DNA of 64,000 bases from Dehalococcoidia bacterium (GCA_965262725.1 OZ253555.1:1472001-1536000), one strand, 5' to 3'. Positions 41,761 to 57,969 are shown, numbered from the stretch's first letter. Numbers and translations are program-made. The notes: a model not told the origin generated them from the sequence alone.

Positions 41761-41839
41761 GAATGGTGCGGGTGGGAATGATGCTTACATCTGGCCCCAC
41801 TTTGATCCTCTGATCTGGCCCCACCCCCGGGGACCGGGA

Positions 41840-42622
41840 TCAGGTCGTTGGGGCACCTCCTCTCGGGGAGGTCGAGGCCCGGAGCCGGTAGGACTCGGTG
41901 CCGGTCTCGATGATATGGGCACGGTAGGTGAGGCGGTCAACGACGGCCGCGGCGAGACGAGGGTCGGTGAAGATGCGGCCCCACTCGGAGAACGGGGAGT
42001 TGGAGGCGACGGCGACCGATGCCCGTTCCTCGCGCTCGGTCAGGATCTGGAACAGCATTTCGGCACCGCGCGGGTCGAGGTGGACGTACCCGAACTCATC
42101 CAGGCAGAGCAGGTCGAGGCGGCCGTAGCGGGCGACGAGGCGTGAGAGCGCGCGATCATCCGACGCTTCGGCCAGTTCATTCACCAGGGCGGCCGTGGTC
42201 ATGTACCGCACGCGCAGCCCCAGGTGGCAGGCGGCCATGCCGAGGCCGATGAGCAGGTGTGACTTCCCGGTGCCGCTGTCACCGAGCAGGACGACGGGCT
42301 CGCCCCTTTCGACCCAGTCGCAGCGCTCCAGCGTGGCGAGCGCCGGCGCGTCGACTGTCGGCGCCGCCTCGAGGTCGAAGTCGGCGAGGTACTTGAAACG
42401 CGGGAACCGCGCCTCGACGATACGGCGCTGACGGCGCCGCTCCTCACGGTCATCGCGTTCGGCTCCCAGCACTTCGGCGAGATAGCCCAGATGGGTGATC
42501 CGGTCTCGGACCGCGGCTTCGGCGAGCGGGAGCGCCTGCTTCCTGACGGTGGGGAGACGGAGCTCGCGGCAGATCGCCTCGATTGTCAGCTCCGCGGCCT
42601 GGTCGGTGAGGGGTGCTGTCAT
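41840..42622 (-). CDS. istB: IS21 helper ATPase
   Basis: GDSGTGKSH, LLCLDEFGY, ASNSPFSEW and AVVDRL. Confidence 0.95.
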   Translation of the reverse strand: MTAPLTDQAAELTIEAICRELRLPTVRKQALPLAEAAVRDRITHLGYLAEVLGAERDDREERRRQRRIVEARFPRFKYLADFDLEAAPTVDAPALATLERCDWVERGEPVVLLGDSGTGKSHLLIGLGMAACHLGLRVRYMTTAALVNELAEASDDRALSRLVARYGRLDLLCLDEFGYVHLDPRGAEMLFQILTEREERASVAVASNSPFSEWGRIFTDPRLAAAVVDRLTYRAHIIETGTESYRLRASTSPRGGAPTT

Positions 42623-42638
42623 CGGGTGCCTCCTGTGG

Positions 42639-44273
42639 TCAGCGTGCCGTCGACACCGCAGCGGTGACGGCGGTTGTGGTGGTGTGCGACGCGTTCTCGG
42701 CAGACCGCGGAGCGCGGGAGCGCCCGCCCGGCGACGTGCCGGGCCATCGGGAATCACCCGAGAGCAGCGCATCGTAGCCATCGAGGAGCGGGGCAGGTCG
42801 GTCGTAGCGCTCCAGGTGCGGTCTCTCGACGGCGGCGTCTGGTGGCCTGCGGTCGGCGAGACGGCGCGCCTCGATGGCGACCAGTTCGGGGTTCACCGAC
42901 TGGATCCTGTTGACCGTCCCGAGCGCGGCGTGCACCGCCGTGAAGGGAAGATGGCGATGCAGGAGCAGGACCTCGATGTACGCCTGCGTGCCCGCGCGGT
43001 CGCCGAGCTTGCGGCGGGCGCGGTCCCAGAAGCGCTGATGCTCGGCTGTGACGTGTCCCTTCGCACGCGCCTGCTGGAGCGCCACCGAGCCCGGGACCGC
43101 CCCGGGCTTGCGCGCGAGCACCTCCAGATAGTGGTCGAGCAGCAGGACCTCTGCTCCGGTGCGGGCGCTGCGCTCGTGGTGGGCGACTTCACGCCCCTCG
43201 GCCCACACGGTCAGGCTGTTCCCGGACAGCCGCACGTCCAGCTTCCGGCCTGCATAGGCCGCCGGGACCGAGTAGCGGGAGCTACGCACGGCGATGCGCG
43301 CCTTGCGGTCGACCTTCGCGCGCAGCGGGATTGACGGGTCGAAGCGCTCCGCCGGAAGCGGACGCAGCGAGGCCTTCTCGTTCTCTCCCATCTCGCCGAC
43401 GGTGGCGAGGCGGCTCTCGATGTGCCGGGCGTCGTCGGTGCGGTCCGCCTCCCGCACTCGTTCGTTCAGCTCGCCGAGGGTCGCCACCTTCGGGACCGGC
43501 ACGAAGTGCCGCCGGCGGAAGCGGCCGACCTCGCCCTCCACACCGCCCTTCTCGTGCGCGCCCTCGATGCCGGGCTCACAGAAGAAGCTGTCGAAGCCGT
43601 AATGCGAGCGGAGCGCGATGAAGCGCTCGGTCTGCAGGCGCTCGCGTCCCTGCAGCACGGTGGTGACGGCCGCCGTCAGATTGTCGTAGCGGATGCGCCG
43701 CGGCACTCCGCCGAGCCGCTCGAAGGCGACCACGTGCCCCTCGAGCAGAGACTCCTGGCCCTCGCCGACGAAGCAGACGTGCGCCGCCCGCCCCGAATGC
43801 GAGAGCCGCATCACGAACATCGCCAGCCGGGTCTCGACGCCCTCCAGCCACACCGTCACCGTGCCGAAGTCGACCTCCGCCTCCTCGCCGGGAGGATGGA
43901 CCTGCGGGATCGTCACAACCGCGCGCCCGCCCTGGATCTCGCGACGCAGGCGCGCGACGCAGGCGCGGACCGTGGGCTCGGCCACCGTCGCCCCGTGTTC
44001 GTCGACGAGGCGCTCCCAGATGCGCCGGGCCGTGTGCCGCTGCTTGCGCGGCGCGCTGAGGTCGTCCACGAGCCAGCCCCGGATGACCGAGACGTACGGC
44101 CCGAGCTTCGGGGCCACGCGGGTCGCCTGCTTGCGTTCCGGGGGTATCGCCGACCCAAGAGCCTGCCGCACCGTGCGCCGGTGCACGCCATGCCGGCGTC
44201 CCAGCTCATGGATCGACAGCTCCTCCTCCCTCGCCATCCGTCGGATAGACTCGAACAGCTCCACTCTCGACAC
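42639..44273 (-). CDS. istA: IS21 transposase
   Basis: PRKQRHTARRI, GEEAEVDFG, GGVP.RIRYDN and HEKGGVE. Confidence 0.95.
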   Translation of the reverse strand: MSRVELFESIRRMAREEELSIHELGRRHGVHRRTVRQALGSAIPPERKQATRVAPKLGPYVSVIRGWLVDDLSAPRKQRHTARRIWERLVDEHGATVAEPTVRACVARLRREIQGGRAVVTIPQVHPPGEEAEVDFGTVTVWLEGVETRLAMFVMRLSHSGRAAHVCFVGEGQESLLEGHVVAFERLGGVPRRIRYDNLTAAVTTVLQGRERLQTERFIALRSHYGFDSFFCEPGIEGAHEKGGVEGEVGRFRRRHFVPVPKVATLGELNERVREADRTDDARHIESRLATVGEMGENEKASLRPLPAERFDPSIPLRAKVDRKARIAVRSSRYSVPAAYAGRKLDVRLSGNSLTVWAEGREVAHHERSARTGAEVLLLDHYLEVLARKPGAVPGSVALQQARAKGHVTAEHQRFWDRARRKLGDRAGTQAYIEVLLLHRHLPFTAVHAALGTVNRIQSVNPELVAIEARRLADRRPPDAAVERPHLERYDRPAPLLDGYDALLSGDSRWPGTSPGGRSRAPRSAENASHTTTTAVTAAVSTAR

Positions 44274-44356
44274 ACTCCTCTTCCCTCGCTCCGGGAGTCA
44301 TGCAGTCACCCGAGCGTAGGTCCTGGATGGGTCGGGGGTGGTGTCCCCATGTTCTT

Positions 44357-45852: not shown

Positions 45853-46171
45853 GGGGCCATTTCCCGTGACTGAGGTCCTCCAGGAGGAGCAAGGGGTGAC
45901 GACCGTCGTCGTCCCATCCAAGCAGCTCCGGCATGAAGGGTGCGGAGATGTCTCGGTAGGCCTGGTGTTCGCGACGCAGCCAGCCGGCGACCGCAGACTG
46001 TGGTGTGTCTGCGCCGGTCTTGGCGAAGACACGCCGCCCGTCCGCAAGGGTGAGAGACCAACGCTCGGCAGGGGTGTACCCACCCGCGGCCGGACAACCC
46101 GACTCGACCGCCGAGCCCATGAGCCTCGCGACTCGTCGTGACAGCCCGGCGGGCGGGGAAGTCACATTCAC
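45853..46171 (-). pseudogene. 5' fragment of a near-identical paralog of the phosphotransferase at 40834, cut by IS110
   Basis: MNVTSPPAGLSRRVARLMG...LEDLSHGKWP, then IS110 sequence; inverted relative to the intact copy. Confidence 0.9.
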
Positions 46172-49660: not shown

Positions 49661-50772
49661 CGGGGGGAGTTTGTCGGATGCCGCCGAGGGAGGAACGCAC
49701 ACCCAGTGTCCTAGCCGGCGCTGCATATTCGACGCTCGGTAACGACGAAGACGGAGTCGCGGTTGTTCTTGAGCAACTGGTGCAGGAGGTCGGGTAGTGC
49801 ATAGGGGACGGGCGTCGGAGGTCACCAGTTCCACGTAACGCTGCGGTCAATCGCTGAGTACGCTGGGAGCTTGCCGAGAAGTCGGGGGCGGGTCACTTGT
49901 CTAAGCTCGAATCCAGAGCGCCAGGCTAACTGGCGAGTAGGCAGGAGGTGGAAGTCCTCTATGGCAAAGAGCTAGCCACTCATGTCATTCCGCGAGCCGT
50001 GCGCGGGTCGTCGCGAGGCGGCTTGTGAAGCGTCGGCAGCGGGGTGTGCGGGCGGGGCTAATGAGCATCGAAAGGGCCATTTGGGGTGCCGAGGCTCTTG
50101 GATTGGTCGAAGGCAATACCGGCGACGGCGCTACTGGCGAGTCGTGGTCGGGCCCCACGGTGTCGAAGACCCCATGCACGCACACACGTCTATCGCCGGG
50201 ACTTGGGAGAGCTGCGCGTTGTCCCGACGAGTCGTACGCCGGGACCGCGTCGGGAAGGGACGTAAACCGTAGCCGATGATGAACGATGCGCAGCAGTCTG
50301 ATGGGGCCGTACGAGCGATGAAGGCGGCGAACAAGGGGGCGCGAGCCCCGGCGGAGTCGCTGGAGCAAAGGGCCCCAACCGAGAGGAATCCTCAAAGCAC
50401 CGGCACGGTCCGGACGCAGAGTCGGGGTGCGGTGTCACCCGGAGCGGAGAGGATACGGCAGTTCGTGGAACGGAAGCCGGGAGAGAAACTCACCGCGCTC
50501 TTGCACCACATCACGCCGGAGGCGCTGCGGGAGGCGTATCTCGCGTTGAAGCGGGATGCGGCTCCGGGCGTGGACGGGGTGAGGTGGCGAGAATACGGGG
50601 ACGGGCTGGACGAGCGATTGCTCGACCTGCATGGCCGCGTACACCGTGGAGCGTACCGGGCGAAGCCCGTCAGGCGGGTAGAGATACCCAAGCCGGACGG
50701 GGGAATACGGCCGCTCGGTATCGTCTCGCTGGAGGACAAGATCGTTCAGCGGGCGGTGGTGGACAATCTTTT

Positions 50773-52100
50773 GGGCACTTCGAAGAATGACTATATCGTC
50801 GGCATGGTGAATGATATACTGTAGCCATCAGTGTCATGGTTACGGGGGATGATATGGGCCAACTTGGGTTCTTCAATGTGGACGACCGCTACGACGCTCT
50901 CGACGCCAAGGGCGACCCACTCGCCAAGCTCGACCAAATCATCCCGTGGGAGCAGTTCAGACCTCAGTTAGAAGCCGTCTGGGCCACGCCCGAAGAAGAG
51001 CGTAAATCACCGGCCGGACGCAAGCCATGGGACGCAATCGTCATCTTCAAGGGATTGATACTCGGCGTACTCTACAACCTCTCCGATGAACAGATTGAGT
51101 ATCAGATCCGCGACCGTCTCTCCTTCTCCCGCTTCTGCGGCACAGGCATCGAAGGCCGGGTGCCCGACGCCACCACCTTCTGGCTCTACCGCGAGCAGTT
51201 GACCAGGGCGGGCGCCATCGCCGAGTTGTTCCAGGCCTTCGACCACTATCTCGCCAGCCAGGGCTACCGCGCCAGTGGCGGACAGATCGTCGACGCCTCG
51301 ATCGTCTCGGTGCCGATCCAGCGCAACAGCCGCCGGGAGAACGAGTCGCTCAAGCAGGACCTCATTCCCTCGGAGTGGGTCTTCAATCCGGCGAAGCTGG
51401 CCCAGAAAGACCTCGACGCCCGCTGGACGAAGAAGCACGGGAAGAGTCACTACGGCTACAAGAACCACATCACCATCGATCGGCGCCACAAGCTGGTGCG
51501 TTCCTACGCCGTCACCGATGCCGCGGTCCATGACAGCCAGGTGATCGACCAGCTGCTCGACTCTCCGAACACGTCACCCGATGTGTGGGCAGACCGTGCC
51601 TATCGGTCGCGGGCGATTGAGGCAATGCTCACGGAGAAAGGTCTGACGAGCCGCATCCATCGGAAGGCCGCTGCCAACCGGCCGTTGACGGCGGCTGAGG
51701 AGGCGGTCAACCGGGGATGGTCGCAAGTACGGGCCCGGGTTGAGCACATCTTCGGCTCGCAGACGAACGAGATGGGCGGCACGCACATCCGTACGATCGG
51801 CGTGCGGCGGGCAGTGACGCAGATCGGCTTCAAGAACCTGGCGTACAATATTCGCCGTCTGGCGCACCTCGAACACCGCCGTACGGCTGCCGCGGCCTAG
51901 CTTGCCGCCACCCGTCCACAGACCTCACACCAGCCTCTAGTTCGGTGCTTTGACAGTCCCGTTTAACTGTCAATTATCCCGCTTCACCTATGCTCTCGCG
52001 GACTCACCCACACCCCCTGGGGTCTCCTCAGCTACGCCCTCTGCCCCCTCGTGCCCTCACCGATACCTTCATCAACAATCGCGAGTTCTTCGAGGTGCCC
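50773..52100 (+). mobile_element. IS5-family element inside the intron RT
   Basis: TIRs GGGCACTTCGAAGAA / GGGCACCTCGAAGAA; TTTT duplication. Confidence 0.93.
50836..51900 (+). CDS. IS5 transposase
   Basis: YNLSD, PDATT, IVDASIV, DARWTKK...YGYKNH, ADRAY and RARVEHIF. Confidence 0.95.
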   Translation: MVTGDDMGQLGFFNVDDRYDALDAKGDPLAKLDQIIPWEQFRPQLEAVWATPEEERKSPAGRKPWDAIVIFKGLILGVLYNLSDEQIEYQIRDRLSFSRFCGTGIEGRVPDATTFWLYREQLTRAGAIAELFQAFDHYLASQGYRASGGQIVDASIVSVPIQRNSRRENESLKQDLIPSEWVFNPAKLAQKDLDARWTKKHGKSHYGYKNHITIDRRHKLVRSYAVTDAAVHDSQVIDQLLDSPNTSPDVWADRAYRSRAIEAMLTEKGLTSRIHRKAAANRPLTAAEEAVNRGWSQVRARVEHIFGSQTNEMGGTHIRTIGVRRAVTQIGFKNLAYNIRRLAHLEHRRTAAAA

Positions 52101-52129
52101 TTTTGAACCCGATTTACGAGTCGGGCTAC

Positions 52130-52991
52130 GTGCGTCCGGAAGTCGAAGGGGTGGTGACGTGATGACGTGACCGGTCCGGAGACATGCTCGTTGCTGCCAG
52201 CCGGTGAGAGTCCGGCACGGGTAACTGTCAGGAGGCCCGTTAGCAGGTCGGCGGCGTGGACGGGAAACGGTCTGCGTCGAAGCCCGACGTCAAGAGCCCT
52301 ATGAGGGGGAGCAAACGTGCGGTCCGCAGCATGACGCGAAGTCTGCCGCGCCGTGAGACTCGCCTGTCTATTGACAGGACCAAGGAGGAGCCGAGCCCGG
52401 GTGGTCAGGGCGAAGGCCATGGACGAGGTGAAGATCCTGGAATGCAGCCTCAAGAAACCTCCCGGCGTATGGGACGTGGAACGTACGGAAGGTAGCGACG
52501 GGAACCGGAGAAGCCCTCCCCGGCCCGGCACCCTGTGAGAGGGCGTCGGAGCGAGGCGTCCTATAACCGGTCAGAGCCGGGAAGTGGACAGCCAGCCGGA
52601 AGGGTGGCGGAGGGGGTCGTAGTACCGCTGGAGCCGGACGGACAACATAACCGCCGGTGATGGGAAGGACCCCTACTTTGTCCGTGCATGTTGCTGGGGG
52701 TGTGGACTGGTGAGTGCCCCTCGGGGCTAGCAACCACTTGGTAGGGTTCGAGGCTCTCCGCACATGCTGTACCGGCTGGCCAAGGCACGACCCACGTTGT
52801 GGGGAGCGCTGCATGCCATCTGGTGAAGGGCATCGGTGAGCCGGATGAGGGAGAACCTCACGTCCGGTTCGATGTGGCAGGGGCTGGAGACGGACGCTGC
52901 TATGGCCGTGGAGTTGGGCACCACCGGGAAACCGGCTTGGAACTGATGCGCCACCGCCTACGGCTCGCACCGCGCCAGCCCCTGACCCTAC
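52130..52991 (+). mobile_element. ORF-less group II intron nested in the outer intron's RT gene
   Basis: 5' GTGCG; domain V GAGCCGGATGAGGGAGAACCTCACGTCCGGTTC at 52838-52870; 3' CCTGACCCTAC; EBS1 GTGGTC (52401-52406) pairs with GGCTAC using two G-U pairs; exact removal restores the RT frame. Confidence 0.88.
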
Positions 52992-54238
52992 TACGGCTTC
53001 TCGCATGGCTTCAGGCCGGGGCGTTCGGCGCATGACGCGCTGGACGCACTGGCCTACGCGGTCGAACGGCGCAAGGTCAGCTGGATTGTCGAGGTGGACA
53101 TCCGGGAGTTCTTCGGCAGCATCGACCGGGGGCGGCTGATGTCGTTTCTGGAGATGCGCATCGGGGACCAGCGGGTGTTGCGCCTGATACGAAAGTGGCT
53201 GAGCGTCGGCGTCATGGACGCGGAGCCGGAAGTCGATTTCGTGCGGGGGATGCCGCAGGGGGCGCCGATATCGCCGCTGCTTGCGAACGTGTACCTGCAC
53301 AACGTGCTCGACGACTGGTTTGCGCGCGAGTGGCGACCGCGGGAGGTCCGGGGCGAGGCGTACATCGTGCGGTATGCCGATGACTTCGTCCTGGGGTTCC
53401 AGCACCGCAGCGATGCGGTGCGGTTCATGGAGGCACTCCGGGAGCGGTTCGCGGCCTACGGGCTGGAGCTGCACCCGGAGAAGACCCGTCTACTTGAGTT
53501 CGGCAGGTTCGCGCTGGCGAACAGGCGGAAGCGCGGGGAGGGCCGACCGGAAACGTTCGACTTTCTCGGCATGACGCACTACTGCCGGACCCGACGCGAC
53601 GGGAGATTCGGGCTGGGGCGCAAGCCCGTTGCGAAGCGGATGCGCCGGACGCTGAAGGCCATCAAGGCCGAGTTGTGGCGGCGCATGCACGACAACCCCG
53701 TGACGACGGGGCAGTGGCTGGGGCGGGTACTGCGTGGGTGGCTTGGCTACTACGCGGTGCCGACCAGCTCGCCGGCGCTCACGCGGTTTGTCCGTTTCGT
53801 GAAGCGGCTCTGGCTGCGCGTTCTCCGACGGCGGTCGCAGCGCGACCGTTTCACGTGGGAGCGCATCCTTGCCCTGTGCCAGGGACACTGGCCCCGAATC
53901 TCCATCCTTCACCCGTGGCCTGCGGAGCGATTTGCCGTCACGCACTTGAGGTAGGAGCCGGATGCCCGAGAGGGCACGTCCGGATCTGTGCGGGGGGTGC
54001 CGGGCAACCGGCATCCCTACCGCGAACCGAACGAAGCTTGACGAGGCGGGGTGCCGGGCTGCCGGAGAGTTCGACGGGTGTGTCGGCGTTCGCCGGGCGG
54101 CGCCGGGGGCGGGCCGGAGCCAAGAGTCGTCGCTCAGCGCCGCTCGGGGGCGCTGAGGGTGCGGGCGCGAGGGTGCGCGAGGCGTGCGCGGGCATGCTGG
54201 CGCGAGCTTCGGCTCCGGGTCGGCGCTGTGAGCGGGCG

Positions 54239-54581
54239 TCAGGCCGGAAGCGGTATCGCCCGTAGTCGCGCGAGCGCGGCTGCCAGCTGCCCGGCCCAGG
54301 GCCAGCGCTTCGGGAGGTGCAGGGTCCACCGCCGGGCAGAGTGGGTGAGCCGTCCGGCGAGAGAGAAGTAGCGTCGCCTGAGCGTCCTGGTCGTCACGAT
54401 CCCCTCGCCGAGCCCGAGGCGTGCCATCCAGCGGGCGAGGTTGTGCGCGATCACCTGCACCGCGAGCCACGCCGCGTTCGCGGCGAAGCGGCCCGAGGGG
54501 AGATGGTTCAACCCGACGCCGTACTTGAGGTCGCGGATCGCGTTCTCGATCTCGGCGTGACGGCGATGGTCGTGTTCCGAT
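54239..54581 (-). pseudogene. IS1380-family transposase, C-terminal fragment
   Basis: HRRHAEIENAIRDLKYG.GL.HLPSGRFAANAAW...TLRRR. Confidence 0.85.
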
Positions 54582-56208
54582 TGTCGTTGAGCAGCGATTC
54601 CGTCAGTAGTTAACGGAGCAGCGAATCTGTCAGTCCCCAGCCAGCGAGCAGGGGGTGACAGTGCAACAGTTCGAAGAGGCACGACGCTACGTACTCGACC
54701 GGGTGATCGCCGGAGATCTGCAGGTCTCGCAGGCCGCCGAGATCCTGAGCATCAGCGAGCGGCACGGGTGGCGGCTCCTCGCCGCCTACCGTGCGCGGGG
54801 AGCCGCGGCGCTCGCCCACGGCAACCGCCGGCGCCGGCCGCACAACGCCGTCCCGGCCGATGTCGCCTCGGCCGTGGTGCGCCTGGCCACCACCCGCTAC
54901 CCGGGAGCGAACCACACCCACCTCGCCGAGCTGCTGTGGGAGCACGAGGGCCTGGACGTGAGCAGTTGGACCGTCCGCCGGATCCTGGCGCGGGCCAGCA
55001 TCCCGAGTCCCCGCCGCCGCCGGCCGCCCGAGCACCGCGTCCGGCGTGAGCGGATGCCCCGCGAGGGGATGCTGCTCCAGGTCGATGGCAGCCATCACGC
55101 CTGGCTCGAGGGACGAGGCCCGCGCTTCGCCCTGCTGCTCGCCGTCGACGATGCGACCGGCGCAGCCGTGCACGCGCTCTTCCGCCCCACCGAGGACGCG
55201 CGCGGCTACTTCCTCCTGCTGGAGGAGGTCGTCCGCGGCTGCGGCATCCCGCTCGCCCTCTACAGTGACCGCCACGGCGTCTTCAAGGCCTCCCCCGACG
55301 GACGGCGCGGACTGAAGGTGTCCACCCAGTTCGCACGGGCGATGCGTGAACTGGGGATCACCCAGATCTTCGCGCGATCACCGCAGGCGAAGGGGCGCGT
55401 GGAACGTGCCGCAGGTACGTTCCAGGACCGGCTGGTGACCGAACTGCGCCACGCTTCCGCCTCCACCATCCCCGAGGCACACGCCGTACTCGAGCGCTTC
55501 CTGCCGCGCTTCAACGCCCGCTTCCGGATCCCGGCAGCGCAGCCCGTGGTGGCCTACCGCCCGCTCGATCCCGCGCTCCCCCTCGCGTCCATCCTGAGCT
55601 TCCGGCACCCCCGCACCGTCGCGCGCGACAACACCGTCAAGTACCACTGGCGCACGCTGCAGCTGCTGCCCGGGCCCGAGCGGAGAAGCTACGCCGGGAC
55701 GCAGGTCGAGGTGGTGGAGCGGCCGGCCGGCGAGCTCTCCGTCCAGCACCAGGGGGAGACGATCCCCTCACGCCCGGCACCGCCGCGCGCGGGCGTGCTG
55801 AGAGCGGTTCGCTCCGAGCTGACCCAGAACCCCGACCACGAGCGCATCGCCTCAGGGCTCGGCTCCGGCGGCGCGCTCCGGCGGCTGCCTGCACTCCTGG
55901 CTGCTGCGGCGGTGGATGCGACGCGCAACGGCGCTGCGGTCAGGTCGGAGACCAGCGGCAAGCAGCTCCGGGCTCCGACTCCTCGGCAGCTCGCCCGCTG
56001 GAAGGCGATCCAGCAGGCGCAGCTGCAGGGACTGTCCATGCGGGCGACCGCCAGGCTGCTCGGGATCTCCCGCGACACCGTCAGCAGCTACGTCCGCGCC
56101 AACGGCGTCCCTGGACGCCGGAACGGTGCCGCGGCATCCTCCGACGACCAGGGCGGTACTGACGGAGTCGCTGCTCCGTTGCACTGACGGAATCGCTGCT
56201 CGTCGACA
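54582..56208 (+). mobile_element. ISNCY/IS1202-like (IS481-related) element
   Basis: TIRs TGTCGTTGAGCAGCGATTCCGTCAGT / TGTCGACGAGCAGCGATTCCGTCAGT with subterminal repeats; no TSD. Confidence 0.88.
54655..56187 (+). CDS. DDE (rve) transposase with a C-terminal HTH
   Basis: LAHGNR, LQVDGSHH.W, AVDDATG, YSDRHG and SPQAKGRVER. Confidence 0.92.
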   Translation: MTVQQFEEARRYVLDRVIAGDLQVSQAAEILSISERHGWRLLAAYRARGAAALAHGNRRRRPHNAVPADVASAVVRLATTRYPGANHTHLAELLWEHEGLDVSSWTVRRILARASIPSPRRRRPPEHRVRRERMPREGMLLQVDGSHHAWLEGRGPRFALLLAVDDATGAAVHALFRPTEDARGYFLLLEEVVRGCGIPLALYSDRHGVFKASPDGRRGLKVSTQFARAMRELGITQIFARSPQAKGRVERAAGTFQDRLVTELRHASASTIPEAHAVLERFLPRFNARFRIPAAQPVVAYRPLDPALPLASILSFRHPRTVARDNTVKYHWRTLQLLPGPERRSYAGTQVEVVERPAGELSVQHQGETIPSRPAPPRAGVLRAVRSELTQNPDHERIASGLGSGGALRRLPALLAAAAVDATRNGAAVRSETSGKQLRAPTPRQLARWKAIQQAQLQGLSMRATARLLGISRDTVSSYVRANGVPGRRNGAAASSDDQGGTDGVAAPLH

Positions 56209-56790: not shown

Positions 56791-57968
56791 TAGTGTCCTG
56801 ATTCGTAATAGCGACAGATAACGGGTATGGTGGCACAGCGGGGTTTTGCCCCATGGGGCAGACTCTGGAGTGTCATGAGCACCCGAATCGGACGGCCGAC
56901 GGTCGCGATCGTCCTGAGCGACGAGGAGCGTGAGACGCTGGAGCGGTGGGCGCGCCGGCCGACATCGGCCCAGGCGCTGGCGCTGCGCTGTCGCATCGTC
57001 CTGGCAGCGGCCGAGGGGACATCGAATAAAGCGATCGCCGCGGCGCTCGATTGCCATCCGGTCACCGTCGGCAAGTGGCGCCGGCGCTTTGCGCAGGGGC
57101 GGCTCGATGGGCTACAGGATGAGCCGCGCCCCGGGGCGCCGCGCACGATCGCCGATGCACAGGTGGAAGCGGTGATCGTCACGACGCTGGAGGAGCAGCC
57201 TCCCAACGCGACGCACTGGTCGACCCGATCGATGGCAGCCGCGGTCGGGATGTCGCAGTCGGCGATCTTCAGGATCTGGCGCGCCTTCGGCCTGAAGCCG
57301 CACCTCGTGGAGAGCTTCAAGCTGTCGCCCGACCCGCAGTTCATCGACAAGGTGCGCGACGTGGCCGGGCTCTATCTCAACCCGCCCGACGCGGCGGTTG
57401 TGCTGTGCGTGGACGAGAAGACCCAGATCCAGGCACTCGACCGCACCGCGCCGACGGTGCCGATGATGCCCGGCGTCCCCGCCCGCCAGACGCACGACTA
57501 CATCCGTCACGGCACGACGAACCTCTACGCGGCGCTCGATGTCGCCTCGGGATGCGTGATCACGGAGATGACCCCCCGGCACCGGGCTCGGGAGTTCCAG
57601 CAGTTCCTCGCCCTCATCGACCAAAGCGTTCCCCGTGAGCTGGCGGTGCATGTCGTGCTCGACAACGTCTCCACGCACCGCACGCCCGCCATCCAGCGCT
57701 GGCTCCAGCGCCATCCCCGCTTCACCTTCCATTTCACGCCGACCTACAGCTCCTGGATGAACCTCGTGGAGCGCTGGTTTGCAGAGCTCACCAGCAAGTG
57801 GCTCCGGCGCGGCACGCACCATAGCGTCCCTGATCTGATCCGCTCAGTGGAGATGTGGGTCGCCAGCTGGAACGAGAATCCGAGGCCCTTCATCTGGCAC
57901 AAGTCCGCGGACCAGATCCTTGACAACCTCGCCGGATATCTAGAGCGCATCCCTGAATCGGGACACTA
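56791..57968 (+). mobile_element. IS630-family element
   Basis: TIRs TAGTGTCCTGATTC / TAGTGTCCCGATTC; TA duplication in a CTAG context. Confidence 0.92.
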
Positions 57969-57969
57969 G
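56875..57969 (+). CDS. IS630 transposase
   Basis: LALRCRIVL, THWSTRSMA, VDEKTQIQAL, VLDN and SSWMNLVERWF. Confidence 0.95.
   Translation: MSTRIGRPTVAIVLSDEERETLERWARRPTSAQALALRCRIVLAAAEGTSNKAIAAALDCHPVTVGKWRRRFAQGRLDGLQDEPRPGAPRTIADAQVEAVIVTTLEEQPPNATHWSTRSMAAAVGMSQSAIFRIWRAFGLKPHLVESFKLSPDPQFIDKVRDVAGLYLNPPDAAVVLCVDEKTQIQALDRTAPTVPMMPGVPARQTHDYIRHGTTNLYAALDVASGCVITEMTPRHRAREFQQFLALIDQSVPRELAVHVVLDNVSTHRTPAIQRWLQRHPRFTFHFTPTYSSWMNLVERWFAELTSKWLRRGTHHSVPDLIRSVEMWVASWNENPRPFIWHKSADQILDNLAGYLERIPESGH

Follow-up and report, generated by a model that had tools for sequence, protein, structure and literature searches.

In a 64,000-nt stretch of DNA from a Dehalococcoidia bacterium (GCA_965262725.1 OZ253555.1:1472001-1536000; hereafter the window, in which positions are counted from the first letter), a group II intron encoding a reverse transcriptase (RT) lies in the end of an IS1380-family insertion sequence (IS) and is itself interrupted by an IS5-family element and by a second group II intron that lacks an open reading frame (ORF). 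The nesting order is IS1380 end, outer intron, and then IS5 and inner intron, which amounts to three levels, and the locus is very probably a pile-up of four independent insertions for which no host function needs to be invoked. The three levels, proposed in an earlier note made from the sequence of the window, were confirmed by comparison with further copies of the elements and with empty and uninterrupted sites. One intron lies wholly inside the other and the boundaries of both are defined, as expected for a twintron. The genome is a single contig of 3,674,403 bp with 70.6% GC, represented by one assembly rated 91.55% complete, and a sample of 40 other genomes was searched for the ORF-less form. 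Between positions 46000 and 58000, Rfam models matched the 5' regions of two introns and two domain V/VI regions; all four matches are on the + strand, and their order is nested. When the whole window was scanned at the gathering threshold, one tRNA was the sole addition to the intron matches.

The outer intron and its IS1380-family target

The outer intron extends over 49916..54026 on the + strand, its 4111 nt shrinking to 1917 nt when the two insertions are left out, and was recognized by RF02005 (group-II-D1D4-6) at 49951-50172 with 170 bits and by RF00029 at 53953-54027 with 39.9 bits (cut-off 40). Its ends were set by empty sites, which leave a 1-nt ambiguity (A), and its last base, 54026 (..CGCGAA; the 3' end reads ..CUACCGCGAA), lies one base before the AC suggested by the Rfam alignment. 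The elements of the locus have the positions given in the earlier note or differ from them by a few bases, except that those of the outer intron had to be corrected to 49916-54026. Its 5' junction occurs 14 times in identical form in the genome, and in all 14 copies the intron begins with GAGCG and not with GUGYG/GTGCG. Some relatives with 84-88% identity begin with GTGCG, and because the yeast ai5-gamma intron likewise starts with GAGCG, this 5' end was not treated as odd. Exon-binding site 1 (EBS1) of the outer intron, TGGATT (50099..50104, + strand), falls, in the Rfam alignment, in the loop of a hairpin and pairs with the exon sequence AATCCA (49910-49915), whereas a relative has CCCATT at this position and AATGGG as its exon. 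Domain V (53954-53987) has a loop of 4 nt and is followed by a domain VI of 36 nt (53989-54024) and by the last bases AA; this region (53954..54026, + strand), delimited by RF00029 and by folding, gave a free energy of -48.6 kcal/mol (z = -4.45) and presents a bulged A at 54019 (-8).

The outer intron has as its 5' exon the 10 outermost nucleotides of a terminal repeat of the IS1380 family, CTCGAATCCA (49906..49915, + strand), of which AATCCA serves as intron-binding site 1 (IBS1). In front of it, 49901-49905 corresponds to the 5-bp flank that intact IS1380-family copies duplicate; the five intact copies examined all carry 5-bp target duplications, and these define the terminus and place the intron 10 nt inside it. 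Eight empty IS1380-family ends read CTCGAATCC-A-CCGAACGAAG and are continuous across the outer-intron site, in agreement with the placement in an IS1380 end given in the earlier note. The outer intron family occupies this same site 14 times in the genome, and its targets include both inverted repeats of the IS. The IS1380-family remainder follows the intron at 54027..54572 on the - strand and represents positions 49-595 of the IS of about 1.66 kb, with a 98.4% match to an intact copy. The copy in the window is truncated, 547 nt and the 10-nt tip being what remains of it, and includes the 3' end of the transposase gene (54239-54682, minus strand; a 147-aa fragment). The family assignment follows from the defined termini, the target duplications and the transposase, for which NF033539 scored 338 bits with an intact copy and 100 bits with the fragment in the window.

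The outer RT gene is present in three pieces on the + strand, the first (50276..50772) encoding residues 1 to about 166, the second a middle piece of 25 nt between the insertions (52105..52129), which holds the IBS2 (CGAGTC) and IBS1 (GGCTAC) of the inner intron, and the last (52992..53954) running from YGFSHG... to the stop codon and containing the YADD motif and the thumb/maturase region. Scripted removal of the IS5 element, of one TTTT and of 862 nt yields an RT of 494 aa with YADD, as the earlier note had described, and this restored protein is identical in 493 of 494 residues to that of an uninterrupted copy (L019:442-1926). An intact outer RT copy was matched by TIGR04416 with 326 bits (cut-off 300), and with its ribozyme domains and an RT/maturase ORF in domain IV the outer element is an RT-encoding group II intron. 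At least 10 outer copies run uninterrupted through both insertion points, and seven other copies keep uninterrupted 494-aa RT ORFs. A homologue from another genus, 86% identical, is gapless over the join (..NPIYESEFYGFSYGFRPGRS..), so that uninterrupted homologues within and outside this genome match the join predicted earlier.

An IS5-family element in the outer RT gene

The IS5-family element of 1328 bp (50773..52100, + strand) contains a transposase ORF at 50836-51900, is bounded by inverted repeats of the sequence GGGCACYTCGAAGAA, and is flanked by a TTTT target-site duplication (50769-50772 and 52101-52104). Its transposase was matched by NF033581 with 271 bits (cut-off 140), and a DDE transposase of the family, inverted repeats and a short target duplication together assign the element to IS5. 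The genome contains six copies with 0-2 mismatches, five of which show a 4-bp duplication. As an IS5 element is not removable by splicing, this RT copy is broken whatever the inner intron does, and the outer RT gene in the window is dead. The inner intron starts 29 bp past the end of IS5, close to the 30 bp or so estimated before. Another outer copy carries an independent IS5 (G000:C1:1876116-1877443; duplication TACG) exactly at the position that the inner intron has in the window, and two of the six IS5 copies are found within 30 bp of each other in one RT gene region.

The inner ORF-less intron

The inner intron (52130..52991, + strand; GTGCG...AC) has 862 nt and is defined by Rfam, by its copies and by its fold. 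RF02003 (group-II-D1D4-4) matches at 52198-52334 with 102.8 bits (cut-off 49), and RF00029 at 52836-52991 with 37.5 bits, slightly below the cut-off of 40 because of a long insertion in domain VI. The genome contains 24 exact full-length copies, which fix both ends to a single base, and their identity indicates a recent spread; four further copies are truncated or split by other insertions, and the total of 28 agrees with the 28 RF02003 matches at 102.8 bits. The ends correspond to the conserved 5' GUGYG and 3' AY of group II introns. Domain V (52838-52870) has a 5-nt loop, and domain VI (52876-52987) comprises 112 nt with a bulged A at 52985 (-7); the fold of both domains together (z = -4.06) is that of a canonical group II intron, for which a domain V hairpin of about 34 nt with an AGC triad and a 2-nt bulge, and a domain VI with a bulged A 7-8 nt before the 3' end, are expected. 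A domain VI typically measures 30-45 nt, and that of the inner lineage is much longer. In P1, an RT-encoding relative described below, the 112-nt stem is about 92% conserved. An RNAalifold analysis of seven relatives delimited domain I (columns 6-391), domain II (392-492) and domain III (493-561), with 21 of 160 pairs compensatory, and this comparison also supports domains II and III. The 862-nt intron, its own domain V and its folding into domains I-VI, on which the reading in the earlier note depended, are therefore corroborated by Rfam, by the exact copies, by RNAalifold for domains I-III and by the fold of domains V and VI.

The two introns belong to different lineages. They match different Rfam D1-D4 subfamilies, their RT families are about 38% identical, and the difference in domain V/VI style that had been noticed earlier is seen in domain V loops of 5 versus 4 nt and in domains VI of 112 versus 36 nt. 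Both RT families are devoid of an endonuclease domain, since the 494-aa and about 430-aa proteins stop after the thumb/maturase region. The nearest solved RTs for both are of IIC type (7UIM and 6AR1), which is not taken as class membership, and despite this likeness EBS2 and sequence-specific targets are present in both introns. The literature that names RF02003 and RF02005 gives no class mapping for them.

Target recognition by the inner intron

Domain I of the inner intron contains the exon-binding sites EBS2 (GACTCG, 52357-52362) and EBS1 (GTGGTC, 52401-52406). The partner of EBS2 (GACUCG) is CGAGUC, some 14 nt upstream of where the intron inserts; that of EBS1 (GUGGU(C)) is formed by the 5-6 nt with which the 5' exon ends, ACCGC at the cognate site and GGCUAC in the window. 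The EBS1 loop differs in each of the seven relatives and pairs with each one's own 5' exon. Such covariation of the loops with the 5' exons of relatives upholds both pairings of the earlier note, GTGGTC with GGCTAC for the inner and TGGATT with AATCCA for the outer intron. The cognate site is located in the RT genes of RT-encoding relatives, at ..FESIPH|DRL.. inside RT motif 2, while in the window the intron hit an unrelated RT gene in its RT 0/1 region, at a site that offers 6/6 and 6/6 pairs, with IBS2 1 nt closer than at the cognate site. Among 14 distinct insertion sites, IBS1 pairs at 5/5 positions in 10 and IBS2 at 5/6 or more in 12; both rules hold at nine of the 14, compared to 0.65% of 200,000 random positions.

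RT-encoding relatives and their occupation by the inner intron

Two RT-encoding introns of the genome resemble the inner intron. P1, a 2074-nt intron present in 12 copies, shows an identity of 86.7% to nt 1-551 and of 91.7% to nt 682-862, and P2 (three copies) is about 80% identical. In domains I-III the identity of P1/P2 with the inner intron amounts to 80-87%. Lacking an RT ORF and having RT-encoding relatives in the same genome, the inner intron qualifies as an ORF-less, non-autonomous form. In a genome of the same genus (L023), an uninterrupted relative of 2073 nt matches nt 1-664 and 666-862 of the inner intron and reads CFESIPHDRLM across the site. The comparison indicates that the inner intron is a non-autonomous deletion derivative in which an ORF of about 1.2 kb was lost, whereas domains I-III, the start of domain IV including the RT start region, and domains V-VI were kept. 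Related introns were detected in four of the 40 other genomes searched, and the ORF-less form was found in none of the 40.

The 28 copies of the inner intron are distributed over the 12 P1 introns (13 copies), the three P2 introns (three copies) and other places (12 copies, including the window). When the genome was searched by tblastn with the P1 RT (53 segments), 15 of 15 P1/P2 RT genes were found to be split at the same codon, residue 169/170, and the only RT genes spanning this residue were of the outer type, with 37-40% identity. The inner intron is present in one of the 14 outer copies, that of the window alone. At the 11 other ectopic sites, an ORF scan for host genes over the joined flanks gave long ORFs on both strands, as they occur throughout this genome of 70.6% GC.

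Several of these places have a structure of their own. One of the 12 P1 places carrying the 862-nt intron is L020 (G000:C1:1183300-1186500). In one P1 (G000:C1:549500-551223), two 862-nt copies are arranged head to tail with zero bases between them, which looks as if a second copy had entered an already occupied site at the point where the 5' exon meets the intron. At L022 (G000:C1:732400-737600) a three-deep nest is formed by P2, the 862-nt intron, and an RT-encoding 84% relative of the outer intron; as the latter is inserted in the domain V loop, it splits the catalytic domain of the middle intron. P1 itself is always located 46 nt inside an end starting with CTAGTGTCC (for example G000:C1 1183389-1183434 and 1186371-1186512), its host being a full-length IS or a MITE-like (miniature inverted-repeat transposable element) element of about 188 bp with matching inverted ends, and 13 such sites are empty.

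In a public sequencing run of unrecorded kind, three contigs omit exactly 862 nt in P1 and one omits the whole 2936-nt twintron; these contigs were matched at 90% likeness with short sides (39-58 nt) and were used only as agreement on the boundaries. Unoccupied sites in the DNA of some strain in that sample would account for such contigs, as would spliced cDNA.

Origin of the locus

The assembly of the locus can be pictured as follows. An IS1380-family element would have inserted first, and a 1917-nt endonuclease-less RT intron would have reached its terminal repeat by retrohoming, at a distance of 10 nt from the tip. In either order, IS5 would then have transposed into the RT gene and the 862-nt intron would have reverse-spliced 29 bp further on. 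Both of these insertions are in domain IV, so that the ribozyme core of the outer intron is untouched. In view of the single occupied copy among 14 outer introns and of the IBS2 that is 1 nt closer, we read the inner copy in the window as the result of a single ectopic retrotransposition event, the target being a site that resembles the cognate one. P1, as a relative, may have supplied the mobilizing RT once splicing had freed the RT mRNA of the inner intron, and at the replication fork the nascent lagging strand would have served as primer for cDNA synthesis. The use of fork-derived primers by endonuclease-less introns has been reviewed (PMC4424553), a lagging-strand pattern for such introns has been counted across genomes (PMC8919778), and ORF-less introns moved in trans form twintrons in Thermosynechococcus elongatus (PMC2882425). 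In the present genome, dnaA is located at 477,809-479,134 (0.478 Mb) and the cumulative GC skew has its maximum at 2.51 Mb. At 11 of the 12 sites outside P1/P2 the sense strand of the intron is on the lagging-strand template, and the twelfth (2.536 Mb) is at the terminus; this strand bias fits priming by the nascent lagging strand.

Several points weigh against this reconstruction. Five of the 14 insertion sites fail one of the two pairing rules, which were derived in part from the same 14 sites. An uninterrupted RT of the inner lineage was not found in this assembly by tblastn with the P1 RT, and consequently the mobilizing RT is hypothetical, unless it disappeared once the burst was over. 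Over its first 551 nt the inner intron shares no more than about 87% identity with P1, from which it then diverges, making P1 a relative and not the direct parent, and binding of the P1 RT to domain IV of the inner intron is only presumed. The splicing and the current activity of these introns are predictions from sequence; in three runs guessed to be of RNA there was almost no cover of the P1 twintron, one run giving four short contigs and no joint and the other two giving nothing.

The locus might also be a regulatory twintron in which the inner intron acts as a switch and the outer RT is made only after inner splicing, as was implied in the earlier note by the claim that RT expression would have required prior removal of the inner intron. 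The insertion is precise and predicted to be removable by splicing, its removal restores the frame, and the same logic holds for the 15 P1/P2 twintrons. In the window, however, IS5 breaks the same copy and is not spliceable, the inner intron is found in only one of 14 outer copies, the seven uninterrupted RT copies elsewhere could act in trans, and the site is a look-alike of the cognate one with altered spacing. A regulatory role is therefore very unlikely here, and dependence of RT expression on splicing applies to the P1/P2 twintrons but not to the window locus. The reverse transcription PCR junction that had been proposed as a check is not diagnostic, as the same sequence is present as DNA in at least 10 uninterrupted copies.

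It is somewhat less improbable, although still unlikely, that an intact outer-type RT moves the inner intron and that the outer RT gene serves it as a true secondary target for homing. Seven intact outer-type RT ORFs are available versus none found intact of the inner lineage, and invasion is mutual, one inner copy having a relative of the outer intron in the loop of its domain V. On the other hand, the RTs are only about 38% identical, the RNAs fall in different Rfam subfamilies, and RT binding to D4a is usually lineage-specific, which weighs against such heterologous mobilization; occupancy is one of about 11 available sites compared to 15/15 at the cognate site. A false placement of IS5 and of the 862 nt in an outer copy by mis-joining of repeats deserves hardly any credence. 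The 28, 14 and six near-identical copies of the three elements are indeed hard on assemblers, but the junctions are exact and typical of the mechanisms (4-bp duplication; IBS/EBS pairing and GTGCG..AC ends), and the 25 nt between the insertions and both flanks continue the RT frame exactly, none of which a chimeric join would give. Four independent insertions are thus the explanation that we retain.

Comparison with known nested introns

A close likeness exists to the TeI3/TeI4 introns of T. elongatus, which include ORF-less deletion derivatives of RT introns in many identical copies, inserted into the ORFs of related RT-encoding introns and into insertion sequences, with one intron ORF likewise broken by an IS (PMC2882425). 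Those introns are mobilized in trans, as was demonstrated experimentally there, whereas here mobilization in trans is a prediction. In T. elongatus the insertion is between the first two ATGs, so that RT can be made without splicing, and two introns keep continuous ORFs (PMC2882425); in the present genome RT motif 2 contains the cognate site, 15 of 15 RT genes are split, and the host intron in the window is of another lineage, with about 38% RT identity.

In Methanosarcina acetivorans, introns, some of them ORF-less, have also homed repeatedly to specific sites in other group II introns, giving nests of several levels without host coding exons (PMC4424553). That system is archaeal and was compared by the summary in this review only; the nests described here differ in that IS1380, IS5 and a MITE-like element take part in them as well. 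In the bacterium Trichodesmium erythraeum, too, one group II intron lies inside another; there a host protein gene is interrupted and sequential splicing was shown in vivo (PMC4649490), whereas the outermost exon here is an IS end and the arrangement is known from genome data alone.

A 5-nt domain V loop has been described for classes E and F (PMC3753933). The inner lineage resembles these classes in this loop, in a compact IIB-like ribozyme, in an apparent EBS2-IBS2 pairing and in an RT without endonuclease domain. The comparison is one of features and not of phylogeny, and a 112-nt domain VI goes unmentioned in the passages of PMC3753933 concerned.

We regard the window locus as a further example of the nesting published for Thermosynechococcus and Methanosarcina. 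The points of difference are the host intron of a different lineage, the cognate site in the middle of the RT gene and the 15/15 occupancy.

Genomic surroundings

The IS1380 remnant is cut off at 54572 and adjoined by an ISNCY-family transposase gene (54655-56184; NF033594, 381 bits). Elsewhere in the window, a repeat of about 2.56 kb (41773-44335), with 14 other copies in the genome and an IstB-like AAA+ match at 42023-42301, is suggestive of an IS21-like element, and an IS630-like ORF (56815-57969) has 10-14 other copies. The region from 41.8 to 58 kb is mostly mobile DNA, with a few ordinary genes at 46.2-49.7 kb. Throughout the genome, 44 matches to RF02003 and 19 to RF02005 above the cut-off add up to 63 group II intron 5' regions, and simple multiplication of lengths by counts puts group II introns at roughly 2-3% of the 3.67-Mb genome.

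Biological meaning

At the scale of the whole genome, the more notable lead is that the search of the assembly yielded only interrupted RT genes of the inner lineage. It is possible, though we hold it to be rather doubtful, that the ORF-less intron in 15 of 15 RT genes of the lineage, at a codon of the RT catalytic domain, constitutes an obligate, self-gating twintron system. If so, and if the RT of that lineage is what moves the ORF-less intron, RT would be made only once the ORF-less intron has spliced itself from the RT mRNA, its splicing would set the enzyme supply for itself and for its host intron, and the copy in the window would be a spill-over into the RT gene of an unrelated intron. 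Despite occupying all RT genes of the lineage, the ORF-less intron is still found in 28 copies, the 24 intact ones being identical.

In the window itself, IS-rich surroundings hold a nest of selfish elements that has come to a dead end, and host genes are unaffected. The nest is an ordinary outcome in a genome where nested mobile elements are unusually dense. The introns are aimed almost wholly at mobile elements, namely IS1380 tips, the ends of IS and MITE elements, and the RT genes of other introns. The organism is thus a natural system for studying how non-autonomous introns exploit and limit autonomous ones, whether a twintron moves as a unit, and how relaxed the target choice of endonuclease-less introns is at replication forks.

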